Assembly: GCA_965215265.1 (NCBI GenBank) | Contig: OZ244048.1 | Location: forward strand, 3,584,001 to 3,648,000 | From: Candidatus Poribacteria bacterium | GTDB lineage: Bacteria > Poribacteria > WGA-4E > WGA-3G | Length of the DNA stretch: 64,000 nt | Direction: 5' to 3' | In this document: in pieces, positions 102 through 40,562 of the stretch | Position numbering within the stretch: the first letter of the stretch is position 1 | Layout: each line of letters opens with the position of its first letter | Made by a program: the position numbers and the translations under genes | Notes under the pieces: model-generated | The model's database searches: none | What the model was told of the DNA's origin: nothing | What the model saw: the letters and a program-made list of their open reading frames with translations, nothing else

Positions 102-2702
102 TCAATTATTTTCTAATGCTTTAGCAACTAGCACAAGGTCAAGAATGTTGACAATGCCATCTCTATTTAGATCTGCTAGGTTTTCCTCTCCGGGTTCTCC
201 AAACTGCGACGAAACCAGCATCAAATCCTGAAGAGTGACAACACCGTCGCCATTGATATCTTCGGGCCGTTGTAGAGTTGGCGGTGCCTTGCGTTCCGGG
301 TAACTAAAGTATTCTTTAATGCGGGGCGCATCTTTGAAAAACATCAGATTTTCCTCAGAGATGCTATCGATCTTCTGAATAAGCCATCTATCATTTTTTT
401 TCACTAAGTAAATGTACGTCTCTCCAGGGTAGGCACCTTTGAAGCAATTGGGGCCCTTCGCGCTGGCCTCTGTTGGAAGTATCCAGAAATTTGTGAGTGC
501 ATCATCTGGTCCCCACTTATCGTCTCTAGTCCCGAAACCGTTCCATAAGCCTTTAAATGCTACTGTGACATCGTCCCAACCTCTTGCGATAGGGATCCAT
601 GCACTGCGCGAAAACACAGTACCAAATTGGGGTTCTGAGGTATCAAATGTTGCTGCGACCTTATCGATATCTTTATCGTTAAAGGCACGATAAAAGTCAC
701 TATAAACTTTCTGGATTTCAATTTTCGCTGCCTCAAATTCAATCGGCGGTAGTGCTGCTGTAGCTGCTGGTTCAAAAGACGAGGCTTCCTGCATCATGTT
801 GTTTGCAAGTGTATGTTGCGAAATTATATTGCCTAAATCCCAGAATAACACCGTACCATCTTCATTTCCGGAGGCGAGTGTTTGCCCGTCAGGGCTAAAA
901 AAGAGGGATACGATACCGGCAGGTCCGGCGAATGAGCCTTTGAGTGCACCAGAATGGGTATCCCACAATAGCACTGTCCCTATTCTACTTCCACTTGCGA
1001 GTACGTTCCCATCTAGACTGAAGGTAACACTCCAGACATCATCTGTATGCCCAAGGAGCGTCGTTTTGAGTTTAGCGGTGCTTATATCCCATAGGAGAAC
1101 AGTTTTCCGGCTTCCACTTGCAAGCGTGCGGCCGTCAGGGCTGAAGGCAAGGCTTCGAATCCTGTCTCTATGTCCGGTGAGTGTAACTTTGTGATGTCCA
1201 CTTGGAACATCCCATAGACGTACCGCTCCTCGACTTCCACTTGCAAGCGTCTGTCCATCCGGACTGAAAACAACACTCGGGGTGCCATCTATATGCGCAA
1301 GGAGCGTTCTTTTATGGTGCCCACTGATAGTATCCCACAAGCAGACCTTAGTATCTGCACTCCCACTGGCAAGAATGCGCCCATCTGGACTGAATGCAAG
1401 GCTTCGGACACCCCGCGTATGTCCAACGAAGGTATTTTTATGTTTTCCTGTTTCTACATCCCATAACCGGATCGTGTGGTCTCTAGAGCCCCCAGCACTT
1501 GCAAGCGTCTGCCCATCCGGACTGAAGACGACAGCTTGAATATAACTTGTATGGCCAGTGAGAACGGCTTTTTGCCGTCCCGTGCCAACATCCCACAACC
1601 GCACTGTCTTATCATCACTTGCCGCGGCCAGTGTGCGCCAATTAGGCGTGAAGGTAAAAGTTTCGCCACTCATTGCATGGCCCGTAATCGTAGTTTCACG
1701 CGTACCAGTGATACTATCCCACAGATACACCGTGCCATCCCAACCTACACTCGCAAGCGTGCGTCCATCTGGTGCGAACGCAACGCTTGAGACGCTATCT
1801 GTATGAGATAACGTGTTTCTATAGGTGGCACTAGGGAAGTCCCACAAACACACCGTGCCGTCCGAGCTCGCACTAGCAAGCGTCCGTTCATCGGTACTGA
1901 AGTCGAGACTATAGACTTGGGCTGTATGCCCCGTGAGAGTGGCTTTGTGTTTACCTGTGACAACATCCCAGAGACGCACTGTCGTGTCAAAACTTGCACT
2001 GGCAAGCGTTTTCCCATCCGGACTGAAAGCGATTGAAGTGAGCTCATTCGTATGGCCTGTTAGTCTTAATTTGACACGTCCCGTGACAGTATCCCGGAGT
2101 TGTATCGTGTCATTTTCCCAACCATCAGTTGCAAATGTGCGACCGTCCGGACTAAAGACAAGGTTCTTTACTGAATCCGTATTCCCGCGAAACGTCGCTT
2201 TATGTTCGCCCGTGACAGCATCCCAGAATCGCACTGTGTTGTCGTGCCCTCCCGTACTAGCAAGGGTCCGCCCATCAGGACTGAAAGTGACACTTGCAAT
2301 CCGGGATTTATGCTCCGTGCGTATGGTTTTATGTTCACTTGTGATAGTATCCCAGAGCCGTAACGTCTTATCAGACGCAGCTGCACTTGCAAGTACATGC
2401 CCATCGGGACTGAAAGCAATGCTCATAATACCGCCTATCTGCCCGGTAAGCAAGTTTAGTTCTTCATACGTGTGTGTATCGTAGAGCCAGATACCGATGG
2501 TCGTTGCAACTGCAAGCCGAGTGCCATCCGGAGAGAAGATGACATTCCCAAATATCCAGCCTTTCCCAATGCGCTGTTTGGCTCCTTGTGGTAATTTCCA
2601 CTGTGTATAATCTGCAACAGAGGCGAACGTAAAAAATACAAAAAAGGTAAGTAGCGTTAATATAGCGGTTTGCAGGCTTCGTGTGAGTCGCCGCATTTCC
2701 AT
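102..2702 (-). CDS. Secreted WD40-repeat protein with an NTF2/SnoaL-like domain and a C-terminal dockerin-like domain
   Basis: Signal peptide; about 14 GH...FSPDG.TLAS...D.TV.LWD repeats; C-terminal EDINGDGVV...ADLNRDGIVNILDL dockerin-like pair. Confidence 0.9.
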   Translation of the reverse strand: MEMRRLTRSLQTAILTLLTFFVFFTFASVADYTQWKLPQGAKQRIGKGWIFGNVIFSPDGTRLAVATTIGIWLYDTHTYEELNLLTGQIGGIMSIAFSPDGHVLASAAASDKTLRLWDTITSEHKTIRTEHKSRIASVTFSPDGRTLASTGGHDNTVRFWDAVTGEHKATFRGNTDSVKNLVFSPDGRTFATDGWENDTIQLRDTVTGRVKLRLTGHTNELTSIAFSPDGKTLASASFDTTVRLWDVVTGKHKATLTGHTAQVYSLDFSTDERTLASASSDGTVCLWDFPSATYRNTLSHTDSVSSVAFAPDGRTLASVGWDGTVYLWDSITGTRETTITGHAMSGETFTFTPNWRTLAAASDDKTVRLWDVGTGRQKAVLTGHTSYIQAVVFSPDGQTLASAGGSRDHTIRLWDVETGKHKNTFVGHTRGVRSLAFSPDGRILASGSADTKVCLWDTISGHHKRTLLAHIDGTPSVVFSPDGQTLASGSRGAVRLWDVPSGHHKVTLTGHRDRIRSLAFSPDGRTLASGSRKTVLLWDISTAKLKTTLLGHTDDVWSVTFSLDGNVLASGSRIGTVLLWDTHSGALKGSFAGPAGIVSLFFSPDGQTLASGNEDGTVLFWDLGNIISQHTLANNMMQEASSFEPAATAALPPIEFEAAKIEIQKVYSDFYRAFNDKDIDKVAATFDTSEPQFGTVFSRSAWIPIARGWDDVTVAFKGLWNGFGTRDDKWGPDDALTNFWILPTEASAKGPNCFKGAYPGETYIYLVKKNDRWLIQKIDSISEENLMFFKDAPRIKEYFSYPERKAPPTLQRPEDINGDGVVTLQDLMLVSSQFGEPGEENLADLNRDGIVNILDLVLVAKALENN

Positions 2703-2723
2703 GGATTCGGTCTCCTGTTTGAT

Positions 2724-4790
2724 TTAATTTTGTGATTTTTGTATTACTGCAGCGATCAGCACAAGATCTGCAATATTGATAACTCCGTCCTCATTGACAT
2801 CCGCGAGGTTATCTGTACTCGGCTGCCCGAATAGTTCAGCAACAACAGTCAGATCCAGTAGATCTACAACACCGTCACGGTTGACATCTTCACGGAATTG
2901 CCGAATTTCTTCTTCACCATCCACTGTTTGCGGAATGTCCCAGAGTAGCACCGCTGCTCCACTACTTGCCAGGGTGTTGCCATCCGGACTAAACATGATA
3001 CTATAAATTGAACCTGCATTCGGGCTGAGCGTTGCTTTAATCTCACCCATGGTAGCATCCCAGAAGTGTACCTTCTGGTCTCCGCGAGCACCGCCGGCAC
3101 TCGCGAGGATCCGGCCGCCCGGACGATAGGTAACGCTATTGACTGGACCTGTATGTCCGATGAGAGAGATTTTGAGCATACCACTCCGAGTATCCCAGAG
3201 TCGGACGGTGTTATCGTCACTTCCACTCGCAATAGTACGACTATCTGGACTAAAAGCGACGCTATTGACTCGTTCTGTATGTCCGATGAGGACGACTTTT
3301 TGCGTACCAGCAGCGACATCCCAGAGTCGGACGGTGTTATCGTCACTTCCACTCGCAATAGTACGACTATCTGGACTGAAAACGACTGAAGTAACACCCC
3401 TTATATGCCCACGCAGTGTGCTTTTGTGTGTGCGAGCGGCATAGTACAACTGCACTGTACTCTGGCTACTGCCACTAGCGAAGAGTAGACCGTCCGGACT
3501 AAAGGCGATTGAGGCAATCCCTGAACCACTGGCCCTATTGCCGGTATAACCTTTGATGGTTGCTCTGTGAGTACTGTTAGAAACATCCCACAGACGTATA
3601 TGCCATCCAATACCACTTGCCAGTGTCTTGCCATCCGGACTGAAAGTCAAAGAGTTACCTGACTCCTCAGTGAGTGTTGCTTTGTGGACACCTATGGTGG
3701 GATGCCACAAGTTTATCTCCCTCCAACCTCTAGCGGCAAGTATGTTACCCTCAGGATTGAAAGCGACTGAAGAAACACCCGGTGTATGCCCCATAATTGC
3801 CCCTATTTGTGCCCCATTCCCAGCATCCCACAGATACAGCTCACCCGTTCCACCACTTGCTAAAGTCTTACCGTCCGGACTAAAGGCAATTGCATAAACG
3901 CTAATGCTTGACAGATGGCCGGTGAGCGTAGCTTTATGTGCACCTGTAGTTGCTTCCCATAGATTCAATTCGCCCCAGCCGCTGCTAGCAAGGGTCCTAC
4001 CATCCGGACTGAACAAAACGTACGACATACGTTTAGGGAGAGTTGCCTTGTGTTCGCCAGTTGCAACGTCCCAGATCCCACCATTTCCGTTCCAACTCCC
4101 AGTTGCAAGTGTTTTGCTATCCGGACTGAAATCGATCCCCCAAACATCTTCCGTATCTACCGTGAGTACCGTTCTAAGCTGCCAATTCGTGATATCCCAC
4201 AAACGTACTGTGTTGTCCTTGTAGCCCCCACCGGTTGCAAGCATCTGGCCATCCGAACTAAAGACAACAGAGTGTACACTCCCCTCATGTCCTGTGAGCG
4301 TGGTTTTGTGTTGTTCACTCACAACATCCCATACACGCACGGTACGGTCTCCACTTCCACTGGCTAGGGTGCGGCTGTCCGGACTAAAGTCCAAACTATA
4401 GACATCGCGCTCATGCCCTATAAGTGTGGTTTTGAGTTGTCCGCTGACAGTAGCCCACACCCGCACTGTACCATCATAACCCCCACTTGCGAGCCTCTGG
4501 CCGTCTGGACTGTATGCGATACAGCTAACACCGCCCGTATGTCCGGTGAGTAGATCGAGTTCTTCACCGGTGGATGTATCGTAACTCCAAATTCCGATGG
4601 TAGTGGCTACGGCGAGGCGGTTTCCATCAGAGGTATAGGCTAAGTCACTGATACTCCCCTTGCCTAACCGCGCTTTAGCACCCTCAGGTAAGCCCCATTC
4701 GGTGTAATTTTGAGAAAAAACAGTTGGAGTAGAGATTGTTAAAGTTAATATCGTCTGCAGTAAGATGTGCACTAATTGCCTTATTTTCAT
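2724..4790 (-). CDS. Secreted WD40-repeat protein with a C-terminal dockerin-like domain
   Basis: Signal peptide; N-terminal YTEWGLPEGAKARLGKG motif shared with the neighbour; WD40 repeats; EDVNRDGVVD...ADVNEDGVINIADL. Confidence 0.9.
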   Translation of the reverse strand: MKIRQLVHILLQTILTLTISTPTVFSQNYTEWGLPEGAKARLGKGSISDLAYTSDGNRLAVATTIGIWSYDTSTGEELDLLTGHTGGVSCIAYSPDGQRLASGGYDGTVRVWATVSGQLKTTLIGHERDVYSLDFSPDSRTLASGSGDRTVRVWDVVSEQHKTTLTGHEGSVHSVVFSSDGQMLATGGGYKDNTVRLWDITNWQLRTVLTVDTEDVWGIDFSPDSKTLATGSWNGNGGIWDVATGEHKATLPKRMSYVLFSPDGRTLASSGWGELNLWEATTGAHKATLTGHLSSISVYAIAFSPDGKTLASGGTGELYLWDAGNGAQIGAIMGHTPGVSSVAFNPEGNILAARGWREINLWHPTIGVHKATLTEESGNSLTFSPDGKTLASGIGWHIRLWDVSNSTHRATIKGYTGNRASGSGIASIAFSPDGLLFASGSSQSTVQLYYAARTHKSTLRGHIRGVTSVVFSPDSRTIASGSDDNTVRLWDVAAGTQKVVLIGHTERVNSVAFSPDSRTIASGSDDNTVRLWDTRSGMLKISLIGHTGPVNSVTYRPGGRILASAGGARGDQKVHFWDATMGEIKATLSPNAGSIYSIMFSPDGNTLASSGAAVLLWDIPQTVDGEEEIRQFREDVNRDGVVDLLDLTVVAELFGQPSTDNLADVNEDGVINIADLVLIAAVIQKSQN
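3192..3377. repeat. Exact 60-nt direct repeat with a 126-nt period (one WD40 unit) inside the CDS
   Basis: ATCCCAGAGTCGG...CTATCTGGACT is identical at 3192-3251 and 3318-3377. Confidence 0.9.
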
Positions 4791-4833
4791 AGTACCGGTC
4801 TCCAGTTAGCAAGATATTGTGTGCTGTGATTAT

Positions 4834-4849
4834 TGCAAATATTATGCCA
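4834..4849 (-). promoter_or_regulatory. Sigma54 (-24/-12) promoter of the WD40 gene pair
   Basis: Minus strand TGGCAT-AATAT-TTGCA, 44 nt upstream of the ATG. Confidence 0.7.
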
Positions 4850-5227
4850 ATAGTTTCTTGTATATTTAAGCCCCATCAACGCTTAGGTATTGACAGCCCG
4901 TGTGTAAATCTCGTCGGAGCCTCTTGATGTATAGTAAAACAGCACTGCTATCTTTCTATCTTATCAGGAAGCACATGATTGTCCAGAATTTGAACATTTC
5001 ATGCTAATAATCTGTAAACCGAGGGTGGACGTGGGGCGAATAACGGGATGGTGGGAGTTGATCTCTATAAGTAGGGAAAGATATTTATCAAATCAGTTTT
5101 TTTTGTATATCTCCGTACCATCAACGTCTAGGTAATGATAGCTCGTGTATAAATCTCATCGGAGACTCTTGATGTTTTGTCTCTAAGATGCAACTTTTTT
5201 GTATATCTCCGTACCATCATCTGCAGT

Positions 5228-5272
5228 TGCCCTATATTGTGCAAAGACATCAGGATTGCCCGTTTTTGTGCA
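5228..5272. promoter_or_regulatory. Paired NtrC-like enhancer sites (TGCCC-N6-GTGCA x2)
   Basis: Sites at 5228-5243 and 5257-5272; the same motif pair occurs in reverse orientation at 61189-61234, near a second sigma54 promoter. Confidence 0.55.
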
Positions 5273-5405
5273 AATTATTTTTGATGTTTTTTTCGTATAT
5301 CTCCGTACCATCACTGCTTATGCATTGTTTAATCGTGTGTAAATCTCGTCGGAGACTCCTTAGGTATAGTCTTTTAAAATCAAAACCTAAAATCGCTCAG
5401 AAGTT

Positions 5406-5427
5406 CGGGCGGAGTACACTCCGCCCG
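5406..5427. repeat. GC-rich palindrome (REP-like hairpin)
   Basis: CGGGCGGAGT-AC-ACTCCGCCCG with perfect 10-bp arms. Confidence 0.6.
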
Positions 5428-5680
5428 TATGTGAGAAAGGTTTTCGTATATCTCCGTACCGTCAACGTCTATGCTTTTGAGGGCTCGTGTGTAAATCTCG
5501 TCGGAGATATCTTAGGCATAGCGTAGCATAAAGCGGCTCTGGCGAGATTTGTATAGGCCTTATCAAAGCAGCAACCTTTATGGTACTGCAGTAGACGAAA
5601 GGATATAGGAATATGGGTACAGATGCCGTTAAAACCTAATGGATACAGGTCATCAATACAACTGAAGAGAGAAAACGGTG

Positions 5681-6517
5681 TTAAGACCAGACGAACACTT
5701 CGTCATCGTCAGCGGAATAGCCGATGAAAACTGCCAAGACAATCCGTGCGCGATTTCCTGCAACGGGTGGCACCTCGTGGATACATCGCGTGTTGAAAAA
5801 GTAGAGATCGCCCTGCTCTAAATCGACTTGGTAATTCTCTACGCCGTTTTCTGCTGCGTACTTGTCAAAGGTTTCCTCTGCAATGTGGGGCTGAATGTCT
5901 TCTGACCAGAGGCATCGATGCAAAATGGCCTGGGTGCCTGTTCCGCGTTCGTCAGCGTTTTGGACGCACAAAACCCCTGCAAACTGATGCTCAAAACGGT
6001 AGACGGCATAATCTGTGCGATGTTCCCGATATTTAACGTGATCTATATGTGGCTTGTAACTATGCGTCTCATAATGCACTCGGAAAATGGCAGGTCCGTA
6101 GAGTGCGCCGTCGGGTTCGCGTGCTACTTTAACCTTCTTCCCGGGTGCGAGGGCTGAAAGGGATTCATAGATGAGGTTAACGGGATTATCAAATCCGTTA
6201 AATAGAAATTTGAAGAGGTGGTGCGTCTCTTTTGCGTGTGTTAAAAAACGGGTTTTATCGTTGCCACGGTTGCCAAGACTCGTGCCGATGTCGATTCGGG
6301 TTCGTTTGTCGTGGGAGTTGATGTCTGCTTCATCGCGCATTAATCCCATGTTGGTGAACCGGCGGATAAGCTTATCACATTGTTCCGGTGGATATGCTTG
6401 CCGCAAAATAATCGCCGGTACTTCCGCTTGAGAAAGTGCATAAATCGGATCAGGGTAAGTTTCACAGACTGTTTTAAGGTCAGGTTGAGCCGGAAGCCAA
6501 TTGGTTGAAGCGTGCAT
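5681..6517 (-). CDS. 2OG-Fe(II) oxygenase superfamily protein
   Basis: HID (HxD) motif; GDLYFFNTRCIHEV distal His followed by RIV. Confidence 0.7.
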   Translation of the reverse strand: MHASTNWLPAQPDLKTVCETYPDPIYALSQAEVPAIILRQAYPPEQCDKLIRRFTNMGLMRDEADINSHDKRTRIDIGTSLGNRGNDKTRFLTHAKETHHLFKFLFNGFDNPVNLIYESLSALAPGKKVKVAREPDGALYGPAIFRVHYETHSYKPHIDHVKYREHRTDYAVYRFEHQFAGVLCVQNADERGTGTQAILHRCLWSEDIQPHIAEETFDKYAAENGVENYQVDLEQGDLYFFNTRCIHEVPPVAGNRARIVLAVFIGYSADDDEVFVWS

Positions 6518-39352: not shown

Positions 39353-39443
39353 TCCCACCGTTTATTAGCGATGTCTATTGGTACCGCAAAATAGACCTAT
39401 CATCTGTTTTGACAATATCTCTTTGATGCTATGCCTAAGAAAT

Positions 39444-39508
39444 CTCCGACGAGATTTACACCGGATTTCACATAACATAACCCTTGATGGTACGGAGATA
39501 TACGAAAA
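39444..39508 (-). repeat. Two-box dispersed repeat copy upstream of phyH
   Basis: Reverse complement TTTTCGTATATCTCCGTACCATCA-N20-CCGGTGTAAATCTCGTCGGAG; the tail CTTAGGCATAGC is shared with the copy at 5441. Confidence 0.85.
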
Positions 39509-39562
39509 ATTGTGTCTCATAATTCCACGGGTGAACCGTGCACGTGATGAAAGGAGTTGAAA

Positions 39563-40390: not shown

Positions 40391-40470
40391 TTATTGAAGA
40401 GCTTGCGAAAAAGGTTATCAATGATGAAGAGGATGAATGATGTTTAGAGTCAATACATCACATCGAACGG

Positions 40471-40562
40471 CTCCGACGAGATTTACACAGTCATTGACAC
40501 AACATCAGGCGTTGTAGAGCTCCTGTATACGAAAAAGCGTTGATGGTATGGAGATATACGAA
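40471..40562 (-). repeat. Two-box dispersed repeat: one full unit (40471-40535) plus a half unit (40537-40562)
   Basis: CTCCGACGAGATTTACACA...TATACGAAAA followed by TTGATGGTATGGAGATATACGAA. Confidence 0.8.

Follow-up and report, generated by a model that had tools for sequence, protein, structure and literature searches.

An intergenic two-box array in a Candidatus Poribacteria genome is very probably one cluster of a genome-wide, lineage-specific repeat family

Several kinds of short, non-coding intergenic repeats are known from bacteria. In enterobacteria and pseudomonads, REP clusters, BIMEs and REPINs comprise hundreds of short intergenic units that are specific to a species or a genus; the units occur singly, in tandem or as inverted hairpin doublets, and make up mosaic clusters with recurrent junctions. 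The REP unit itself is a short imperfect palindrome of ~20-40 nt. The BOX elements of pneumococci are built of modules (boxA-boxB(n)-boxC), the internal module varying in number and the outer modules being able to pair, and we know of no transposase for them. MITEs with long inverted ends, among them the Correia/NEMIS elements of Neisseria and foldback-type elements, are non-coding, shorter than 300 bp and present in high copy number; their inverted ends form a long hairpin, and they insert beside genes, to which they can supply expression signals. Single-strand HUH transposons insert beside a short target without duplicating it. Judged by analogy, BIMEs and REPINs, the Correia-type MITEs and pneumococcal BOX appear to be the closest relatives in kind of the array described here.

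The array lies in a 64,000-nt stretch of DNA, referred to below as the window. An earlier note, made from the letters of this stretch, had pointed to an 890-bp intergenic region containing a repeat of two conserved boxes (A and B), in four full direct copies, one half copy and one degenerate inverted copy. The gap was confirmed, running from ORF 2724-4790 (-) to ORF 5681-6517 (-), and the array was found as described at window positions 4854-5600. The features of the locus, and two further units of the same repeat elsewhere in the window, are as follows.

2724..4790, minus strand: gene for a WD40-repeat protein, downstream flank (domain scan)
4854..4936, plus strand: repeat unit 1, with a variant box A (TATATTTAAGCCCC), box B at 4899-4919 and a GGAGCC end (nhmmer E 7e-22, model positions 2-84)
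5099..5181, plus strand: repeat unit 2, box A at 5105-5123 and box B at 5144-5164 (nhmmer E 6e-22)
5196..5220, plus strand: half unit consisting of a T-run and box A only, with an exact box A at 5201-5219 (nhmmer E 0.03, model positions 3-27)
5289..5371, plus strand: repeat unit 3, box A at 5295-5313 and box B at 5334-5354 (nhmmer E 1e-22)
5440..5524, plus strand: repeat unit 4, box A at 5446-5464 and box B at 5486-5506, left arm of a foldback (nhmmer E 2e-22)
5525..5600, minus strand: degenerate inverted unit, right arm of the foldback and partner of unit 4 (nhmmer E 6e-6, model positions 4-79)
5681..6517, minus strand: gene for a WelO5-like 2OG/Fe(II) oxygenase, upstream flank (domain scan)
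39426..39509, minus strand: single unit, its box-A end 47 nt before the start of a PhyH gene at 39557 (nhmmer E 1.5e-22)
40456..40562, minus strand: unit carrying an extra box A, nested after CATCAACGCTT; it lies between convergent genes (nhmmer E 1.4e-9)

Allowing up to 3 mismatches, box A and box B were each matched six times in the window, as compared to 0.01 and 0.00 matches expected from shuffled sequences. The start-to-start distances of the local copies are irregular (245, 96, 94 and 151 nt), and the box-A end of unit 1 is directed at the start of the WD40 gene (2724-4790), 65 nt away. Eight flanking ORFs were scanned for domains; they encode WD40 proteins, the WelO5-like and two PhyH-type oxygenases, an amino-acid kinase, an FG-GAP protein and, in one case, a protein combining DUF4440/SnoaL-like and F5/8 type C domains. 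In line with the earlier note, these eight held no domain of a cas protein, a transposase or an integrase; in integrons, attC sites bound gene cassettes beside an intI integrase. A scan of positions 4700-5750 returned a single promoter-like site, located in unique spacer sequence (3.0 expected), and no terminator-like sites. Between units 3 and 4 (window 5389-5444) there is a GC-rich hairpin (TTCGGGCGGAGT AC ACTCCGCCCG), a 12-mer of which had 20 matches in the genome versus 7 in the control and is not clearly repeated. Positions 102-4790 of the window encode two adjoining large WD40-repeat proteins (866 and 688 aa) that belong to a large paralogous family; each of two related genomes contains more than 100 stretches that match it.

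To place the array in its genomic context, a profile HMM made from five of the window copies was run on the whole genome from which the window was taken, a single contig of 4,833,177 bp that is 95% complete (G000). The profile yielded 841 matches at E<=10, 606 at E<=1e-3 and 479 at E<=1e-5. The 606 units of the middle threshold, 397 of them full length, are divided between the two strands (321 on plus, 285 on minus) and, with a joining distance of 400 nt, fall into 355 clusters: 196 single units, 101 pairs, 40 triples and 18 larger groups. The window array is one of five clusters in the genome that contain five units. When the units were compared to a crude gene map, composed of ORFs of at least 100 aa and covering 84.6% of the genome, 470 of the 606 had no ORF overlap at all and 79 were situated mostly inside an ORF; spacers containing units had a median length of 328 nt, as compared to 126 nt for those without. 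A separate count of lone box B sequences, which gave 279 matches to a 16-mer with 3 errors, was dropped, as these were mostly chance matches inside genes.

Such a high-copy, dispersed and intergenic distribution indicates a family of repeats and not a local device. The view of the earlier note, that this is a special local array held under spacing constraint, did not survive the genome-wide comparison, in which it is one of 355 clusters located beside unrelated genes. We conclude that the array is very probably a compound cluster belonging to a family of short intergenic repeats that are non-coding and non-autonomous and occur throughout the genome. By itself the array is ordinary, being one cluster of species-specific intergenic repeats of a type known from many bacteria. 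Public runs from 10 studies contain the stretch in whole or in part, eight of the runs at least half of it, and no RNA run was listed among them. An indication from independent samples is given by short-read contigs of four runs from four studies, in which the summed depth over the repeat was ~30-100x that of the flanks and the contigs broke at the repeat. Their joints at repeats were short-sided, and one run had no cover over positions 4940-5067. The excess depth is consistent with a high copy number in these samples and is silent on strain polymorphism. About 1% of the closed genome of an uncultured bacterium is made up of a single repeat family at which short-read assemblies break.

The basic unit is ~85 nt in length and consists of a T-run, box A, a moderately conserved core, box B and a looser tail. 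In the consensus of the 397 full-length units box A reads GTATATCTCCGTACCATCA, the core AACGCTTATGTTTTGTTAACTCC and box B TGTGTAAATCTCGTCGGAG; approximately half of the full units carry a variant box A, GTATATTTCAGC-CCATCA, in which TTTCAGC replaces CTCCGTA while box B remains CGTCGGAG. Mean pairwise identity is 0.69 over the T-run and box A, 0.57 over the core, 0.84 over box B and 0.44 over the tail, making box B the best-conserved part of the unit. The core, which had been described as variable, has a consensus of its own; at 57% pairwise identity it belongs to the conserved repeat and is no spacer. The fixed distance between the boxes, in turn, holds across the genome. For 302 box A sites a box B is found no more than 200 nt away; it follows at 22 nt in 196 of them and within 1 nt of this value (21-23 nt) in 231, as measured to a box B motif that begins 2 nt before the one defined in the earlier note. 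Common descent accounts for this constancy, the units being copies of one master sequence with few indels, and no extra spacing constraint is needed. A division into two subfamilies, one combining the altered box A with a changed end of box B, was found to be a statistical tendency (p = 7e-6) and not a rule: where box A is altered (position 17 = A), GGAG is followed by C in 118 of 197 units, as compared to 64 of the 177 others.

In having direct repeats whose two conserved blocks are set apart by a more variable stretch of constant length, the array has some likeness to a CRISPR; it differs from one, in which identical repeats alternate at regular distances with unique spacers, in its conserved core (57%), its irregular spacing and its 355 dispersed loci on both strands. 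It is likewise distinct from REP, the unit of ~85 nt not being a palindrome but a pair of directly repeated subunits, and no gene for a RAYT (Y1 transposase), as would be found in a REPIN-RAYT system, is present in the genome. The earlier note was correct in setting both of these systems aside.

The symmetry of the family was revealed by the arrangement of neighbouring units, of which 138 pairs are tandem, 100 convergent and 13 divergent. Compact spacing is the rule among the two-unit convergent clusters (43 of 57 span no more than 175 nt), and most full units have, after box B, a short loop and then an inverted box B. The convergent neighbours and their compact clusters show that the real symmetry lies between a unit and its inverted copy, and not between box A and box B. 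The resulting foldback, mostly 130-175 bp in length with arms of ~75 nt, can make a long hairpin.

In these properties the family resembles each of the known systems in part. Its behaviour is closest to that of BIMEs and REPINs: single, tandem and inverted units are assembled into mosaic clusters, and REPIN-like inverted doublets are present (100 convergent pairs, with a foldback of -56.4 kcal/mol in the window). With BOX it shares modular intergenic boxes without a known transposase; it has, however, no sequence relation to BOX, a unit pairs with its own inverted copy instead of with a separate boxC, and the copy number is several times that of the pneumococcal elements. Its 606 small non-coding units, with a foldback form that is mostly 130-175 bp long and has inverted arms, are reminiscent of a MITE, but single and tandem arms are commoner here than complete elements, no target-site duplication was visible by eye at 43 elements, and no parent IS with matching ends was found among the transposase families searched. 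In the portions of the literature that our search could reach, nothing was found on repeats of this kind in Poribacteria.

The distribution of the repeat among related genomes was also determined. When 30 relatives were searched by blastn with a 90-nt query, the unit was detected in none, in agreement with the earlier proposal of a lineage-specific element. A sequence-only covariance model constructed from 23 units (R1) and run on genomes of the same taxonomic family was able to detect diverged copies in a genome of the same genus (G001, 31 matches) and in one of another genus (G004, 50 matches); among the other 58 genomes of the family, eight had one or two matches each and the rest none. Overall, diverged relatives of the repeat were seen in just two other genomes of 151. 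The part kept exactly in these diverged copies is a 14-mer, AAATCTCGTCGGAG, which occurs 209 times in the window's genome, 61 times in G004, five times in G001 and between zero and two times in each of 148 other genomes of the phylum. An 18-mer of box B (GTGTAAATCTCGTCGGAG) gave 10 single matches among species representatives, in unrelated organisms, and nine single matches in JGI metagenomes, in both cases at chance level. A unique 22-mer from beside the array had no match in the metagenomes scanned, and the array had none in collections of phages and plasmids.

The history of individual sites could be followed in the conserved cdsA-dxr-rseP gene cluster. In the window's genome the two spacers of this cluster are 129 and 191 nt in length and are made of repeat sequence. 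The orthologous sites are empty in G001, of the same genus, and in G002, the spacers without the repeat being 23 and 68 nt in the former and 8 and 27 nt in the latter. Longer spacers were found in G012 (140 nt before dxr and 133 nt after it), G003 (150 and 90 nt) and G004 (559 and 114 nt), and these are not visibly made of this repeat. In G004 (L063, C1 2308475-2312710) the cdsA-dxr and dxr-rseP spacers were seen by eye to hold other repeated sequences, e.g. GGTATTAGCCCTGCAAGCAGGGATAAATACC; such different repeats of its own suggest that these sites were filled independently by other families. The spacers in the window's genome give the impression of a replacement more than of a simple interruption. 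Both cdsA and dxr take their last codons and stop from the repeat, which has also taken the place of the native ribosome-binding regions of dxr and rseP up to the ATG. At this locus (L058, C1 1678001-1687000) the last few residues and stop of CdsA and approximately the last 14 residues and stop of Dxr are encoded by the repeat, in place of the C-terminal tails seen in G001. This cluster offers the clearest evidence that, in this lineage, the family expanded into short spacers that already existed. In conserved operons the ends of genes and their ribosome-binding regions have been rewritten by the repeats, and annotation and expression models for this organism must allow for them.

Taken together, these results suggest that the family is lineage-specific, selfish or semi-domesticated intergenic DNA of a known kind, spreading in the manner of MITE, BIME or BOX elements. 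The units occur singly, head to tail or as a unit joined to an inverted unit (the foldback). According to this scenario, they would spread by mobilisation in trans or by recombination at fixed junctions; and as the family multiplied in the lineage, the spacers between genes would have been filled or replaced. Against it speak the failure to identify a mobilising enzyme among the families searched, the lack of a target-site duplication visible by eye at 43 foldbacks with intact ends, and the replaced look of the spacers in the cdsA-dxr-rseP cluster.

The units are not oriented at random with respect to their neighbouring genes. Out of 131 single units located between co-directional genes, 102 point against transcription and 29 along it (binomial p = 1e-10), and the bias is observed in both contexts (46 vs 14 between two plus-strand genes, 56 vs 15 between two minus-strand genes). 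It extends to clusters: in the frame of transcription, the pattern '--' was found 18 times and '++' five times, and the recurrent patterns include '+--' (17 loci), '+---' (3) and '+----' (2). The window array itself reads '+----', one foldback followed by extra units against transcription. The orientation bias is real in this genome. As to its cause, selection may have favoured a leader that can be used or have acted against units in the other orientation, or the mechanism itself may be directional. The strong bias of the single units, together with the exact conservation of AAATCTCGTCGGAG across genera, suggests that selection or a directional mechanism has acted beyond simple selfish spread.

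One possible explanation is that the units act in cis as expression cassettes, or have come to do so. On the transcript the box-A end reads ...GGAGAUAUACAAAAA, which could act as a portable Shine-Dalgarno sequence with an A-rich leader, and the family would then persist because many genes now depend on the units. The orientation bias fits this explanation in both gene contexts, as does the replacement of the native ribosome-binding regions of dxr and rseP. In addition, the box-A end is intact in 509 units, 304 of which face a co-oriented gene no more than 300 nt away; in 102 of the 304 the first in-frame start is found no more than 15 nt from the end of the unit, 85 of these starts being ATG. 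The genome does use Shine-Dalgarno sequences; in most cases, however, their GGAG begins at -13 to -10, while with an ATG straight after the A-run the GGAG of the repeat would begin at approximately -15 to -17, outside this peak. Moreover, the altered box A, carried by about half of the units, reads GGGCTGAAAT on the transcript and has no GGAG. In intact foldbacks the start-proximal arm was the better conserved in 18 of 44 (p = 0.44), which does not support selective retention of that arm. No bias was evident in G004, in which 18 hand-read loci (17 and L049) gave eight units in the opposite and seven in the same orientation, in a small sample of diverged matches. The window array, finally, ends 65 nt from the WD40 start and does not adjoin it. 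Gene starts were called crudely, as the longest ORF. In view of these points we consider a role as expression cassettes unlikely as the main explanation of the family.

Also pertinent to the way in which the family spreads are the junctions within its mosaic clusters. The junction AAATCTCG|TTTTTTCGTATA, in which box B is cut after CTCG and a new unit begins, occurs 119 times in the genome with up to 3 mismatches, and not once in a reversed-genome control; its recurrence indicates that the tandem arrays are built of units of ~62 nt. A second dispersed family (TGGCAGGATAGGTATTCTT..., ~169 copies with up to 3 mismatches, none in the control) joins box B at a fixed point after GTGTGT in 20 instances. 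Copies of this second family were also seen nested in units, e.g. near positions 241100 and 1641300 of the genome (G000:C1). At 43 foldbacks with intact ends no target-site duplication was found by eye, the exact ends of the element not having been established. A two-gene cassette, composed of a small ORF (120-146 aa, no Pfam match) and an N6_N4 DNA methylase, was noted at four loci of the same contig (818061-819488, 1395792-1397090, 223381-224670 and 1197404-1198849) with 91-97% nucleotide identity; in three of the four a repeat foldback is situated ~5 nt or less past the methylase stop, within the shared sequence.

These fixed junctions would be expected if the units were inserted site-specifically by an unrecognised enzyme, with box B as its recognition site and preferred target, cut after CTCG. 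The two recurrent joints at box B agree with this, as do the strand bias, the lack of a visible target-site duplication, the conservation of box B, which is the highest in the unit and includes the 14-mer kept exactly in another genus, and the lack of an intact transposase among the families searched. On the other hand, box A and box B subunits are homologous, and slippage during replication or unequal recombination between them could produce identical junctions; the orientation of the units follows gene direction, while the cumulative GC skew of the genome gives no clean replichores against which it could be set. The genome has no HUH/Y1 gene, and we regard site-specific insertion by an unrecognised enzyme as improbable.

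The search for a mobilising enzyme covered several families. The Y1_Tnp/RAYT domain (PF01797) had no match in the window's genome, and was found in 6 of 14 control genomes; the TnpB nuclease domain, rve and IS110 transposases were similarly absent, with positive control genomes in each search. DDE_Tnp_1 gave four marginal matches of ~24 bits and DDE_3 only fragments, one with an internal stop. A Y2 search was silent, but so it was in the control genomes. No parent IS with ends matching those of the repeat was found among the Y1, TnpB, rve, IS110, DDE_Tnp_1 and DDE_3 searches. An autonomous copy was also sought between inverted box A ends; owing to the density of the units this produced 191 candidate intervals, and no recurrent cargo was found in them. 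The one abundant transposase-like family in the genome is that of the YhgA/Rpn-like nucleases (Transposase_31), with 24 genes (e.g. C1 1264791-1265867), the highest count among 41 genomes sampled in the taxonomic family (0-10 in the others). These were rejected as mobilisers, having neither a spatial nor a phyletic association with the repeat: their median distance to the nearest unit is 10.6 kb, as compared to 9.6 kb for all genes, and they occur in 32 of the 41 genomes irrespective of the repeat and are absent from G001.

In the absence of an intact match among the classical transposases searched, and given fixed junctions without visible duplication, the strand bias and the retention of AAATCTCGTCGGAG across genera, it may also be proposed that the family is driven by an undescribed mobilisation machinery, with box B as the recognition or target site of its site-specific enzyme. 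We view this as a long shot. If true, on the order of a hundred genes would have had their translation-initiation regions, and even their final codons, captured by the element. What merits following in the present data is the bias in orientation, the joining of units at fixed points, the 14-mer shared across genera and the transposase that was not found; the bias, the junctions and the lack of a recognisable transposase make this family a reasonable case in which to study how transposase-less repeats of the BOX/ERIC type spread.

A pairing of box A with box B had also been proposed. The sequences are indeed capable of it: in 23 aligned units, 74.5% of the cells in the proposed 7-bp helix pair. 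Shuffled controls, however, do equally well (74.8%, with 350 of 500 shuffles reaching the observed pairing), and there is a single compensatory cell. Furthermore, among the 397 full-length units the change of position 17 from C to A is uncompensated at position 64 (A-G 95, A-A 64, A-T 35), and the mutual information of all column pairs contained only signals of alignment gaps and of the subfamilies. The helix was rejected on these grounds of absent covariation, shuffle-level pairing and an uncompensated change. The RNAalifold consensus of the single unit has an energy of just -2 kcal/mol with three invariant pairs, and Rfam gave no matches in the whole window at the gathering score and none in 4700-5750 at E<=1, leaving the suggestion of a guide-like or structured RNA unsupported. 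The earlier note had proposed to judge its own reading by covariation and by matches to a known IS, MITE or Rfam family; by these standards the reading is refuted in part, since the copies show no covariation and the unit, in its foldback form, behaves like the long inverted end of a MITE-like element, and neither a known IS nor an Rfam family was matched.

The reading of the array as phased sites for protein binding or recombination that are peculiar to this locus, or as a non-coding RNA of a guide-like or structured type, drew on the fixed box-to-box distance and the strongly conserved boxes, and is largely refuted by the genome-wide distribution of the units beside unrelated genes; with the irregular local spacing, the lack of A:B covariation, the weak consensus fold, cores that are conserved and not unique, no match of the array in phages or plasmids, no Rfam match, and eight flanking ORFs in which neither recombinase nor cas domains were found, it is hardly tenable. 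Structure is instead a property of the doubled element: the fold of a single unit is unremarkable (z -1.8), whereas unit 4 together with the degenerate inverted unit (5436-5606) folds at -56.4 kcal/mol with a z of -3.4.
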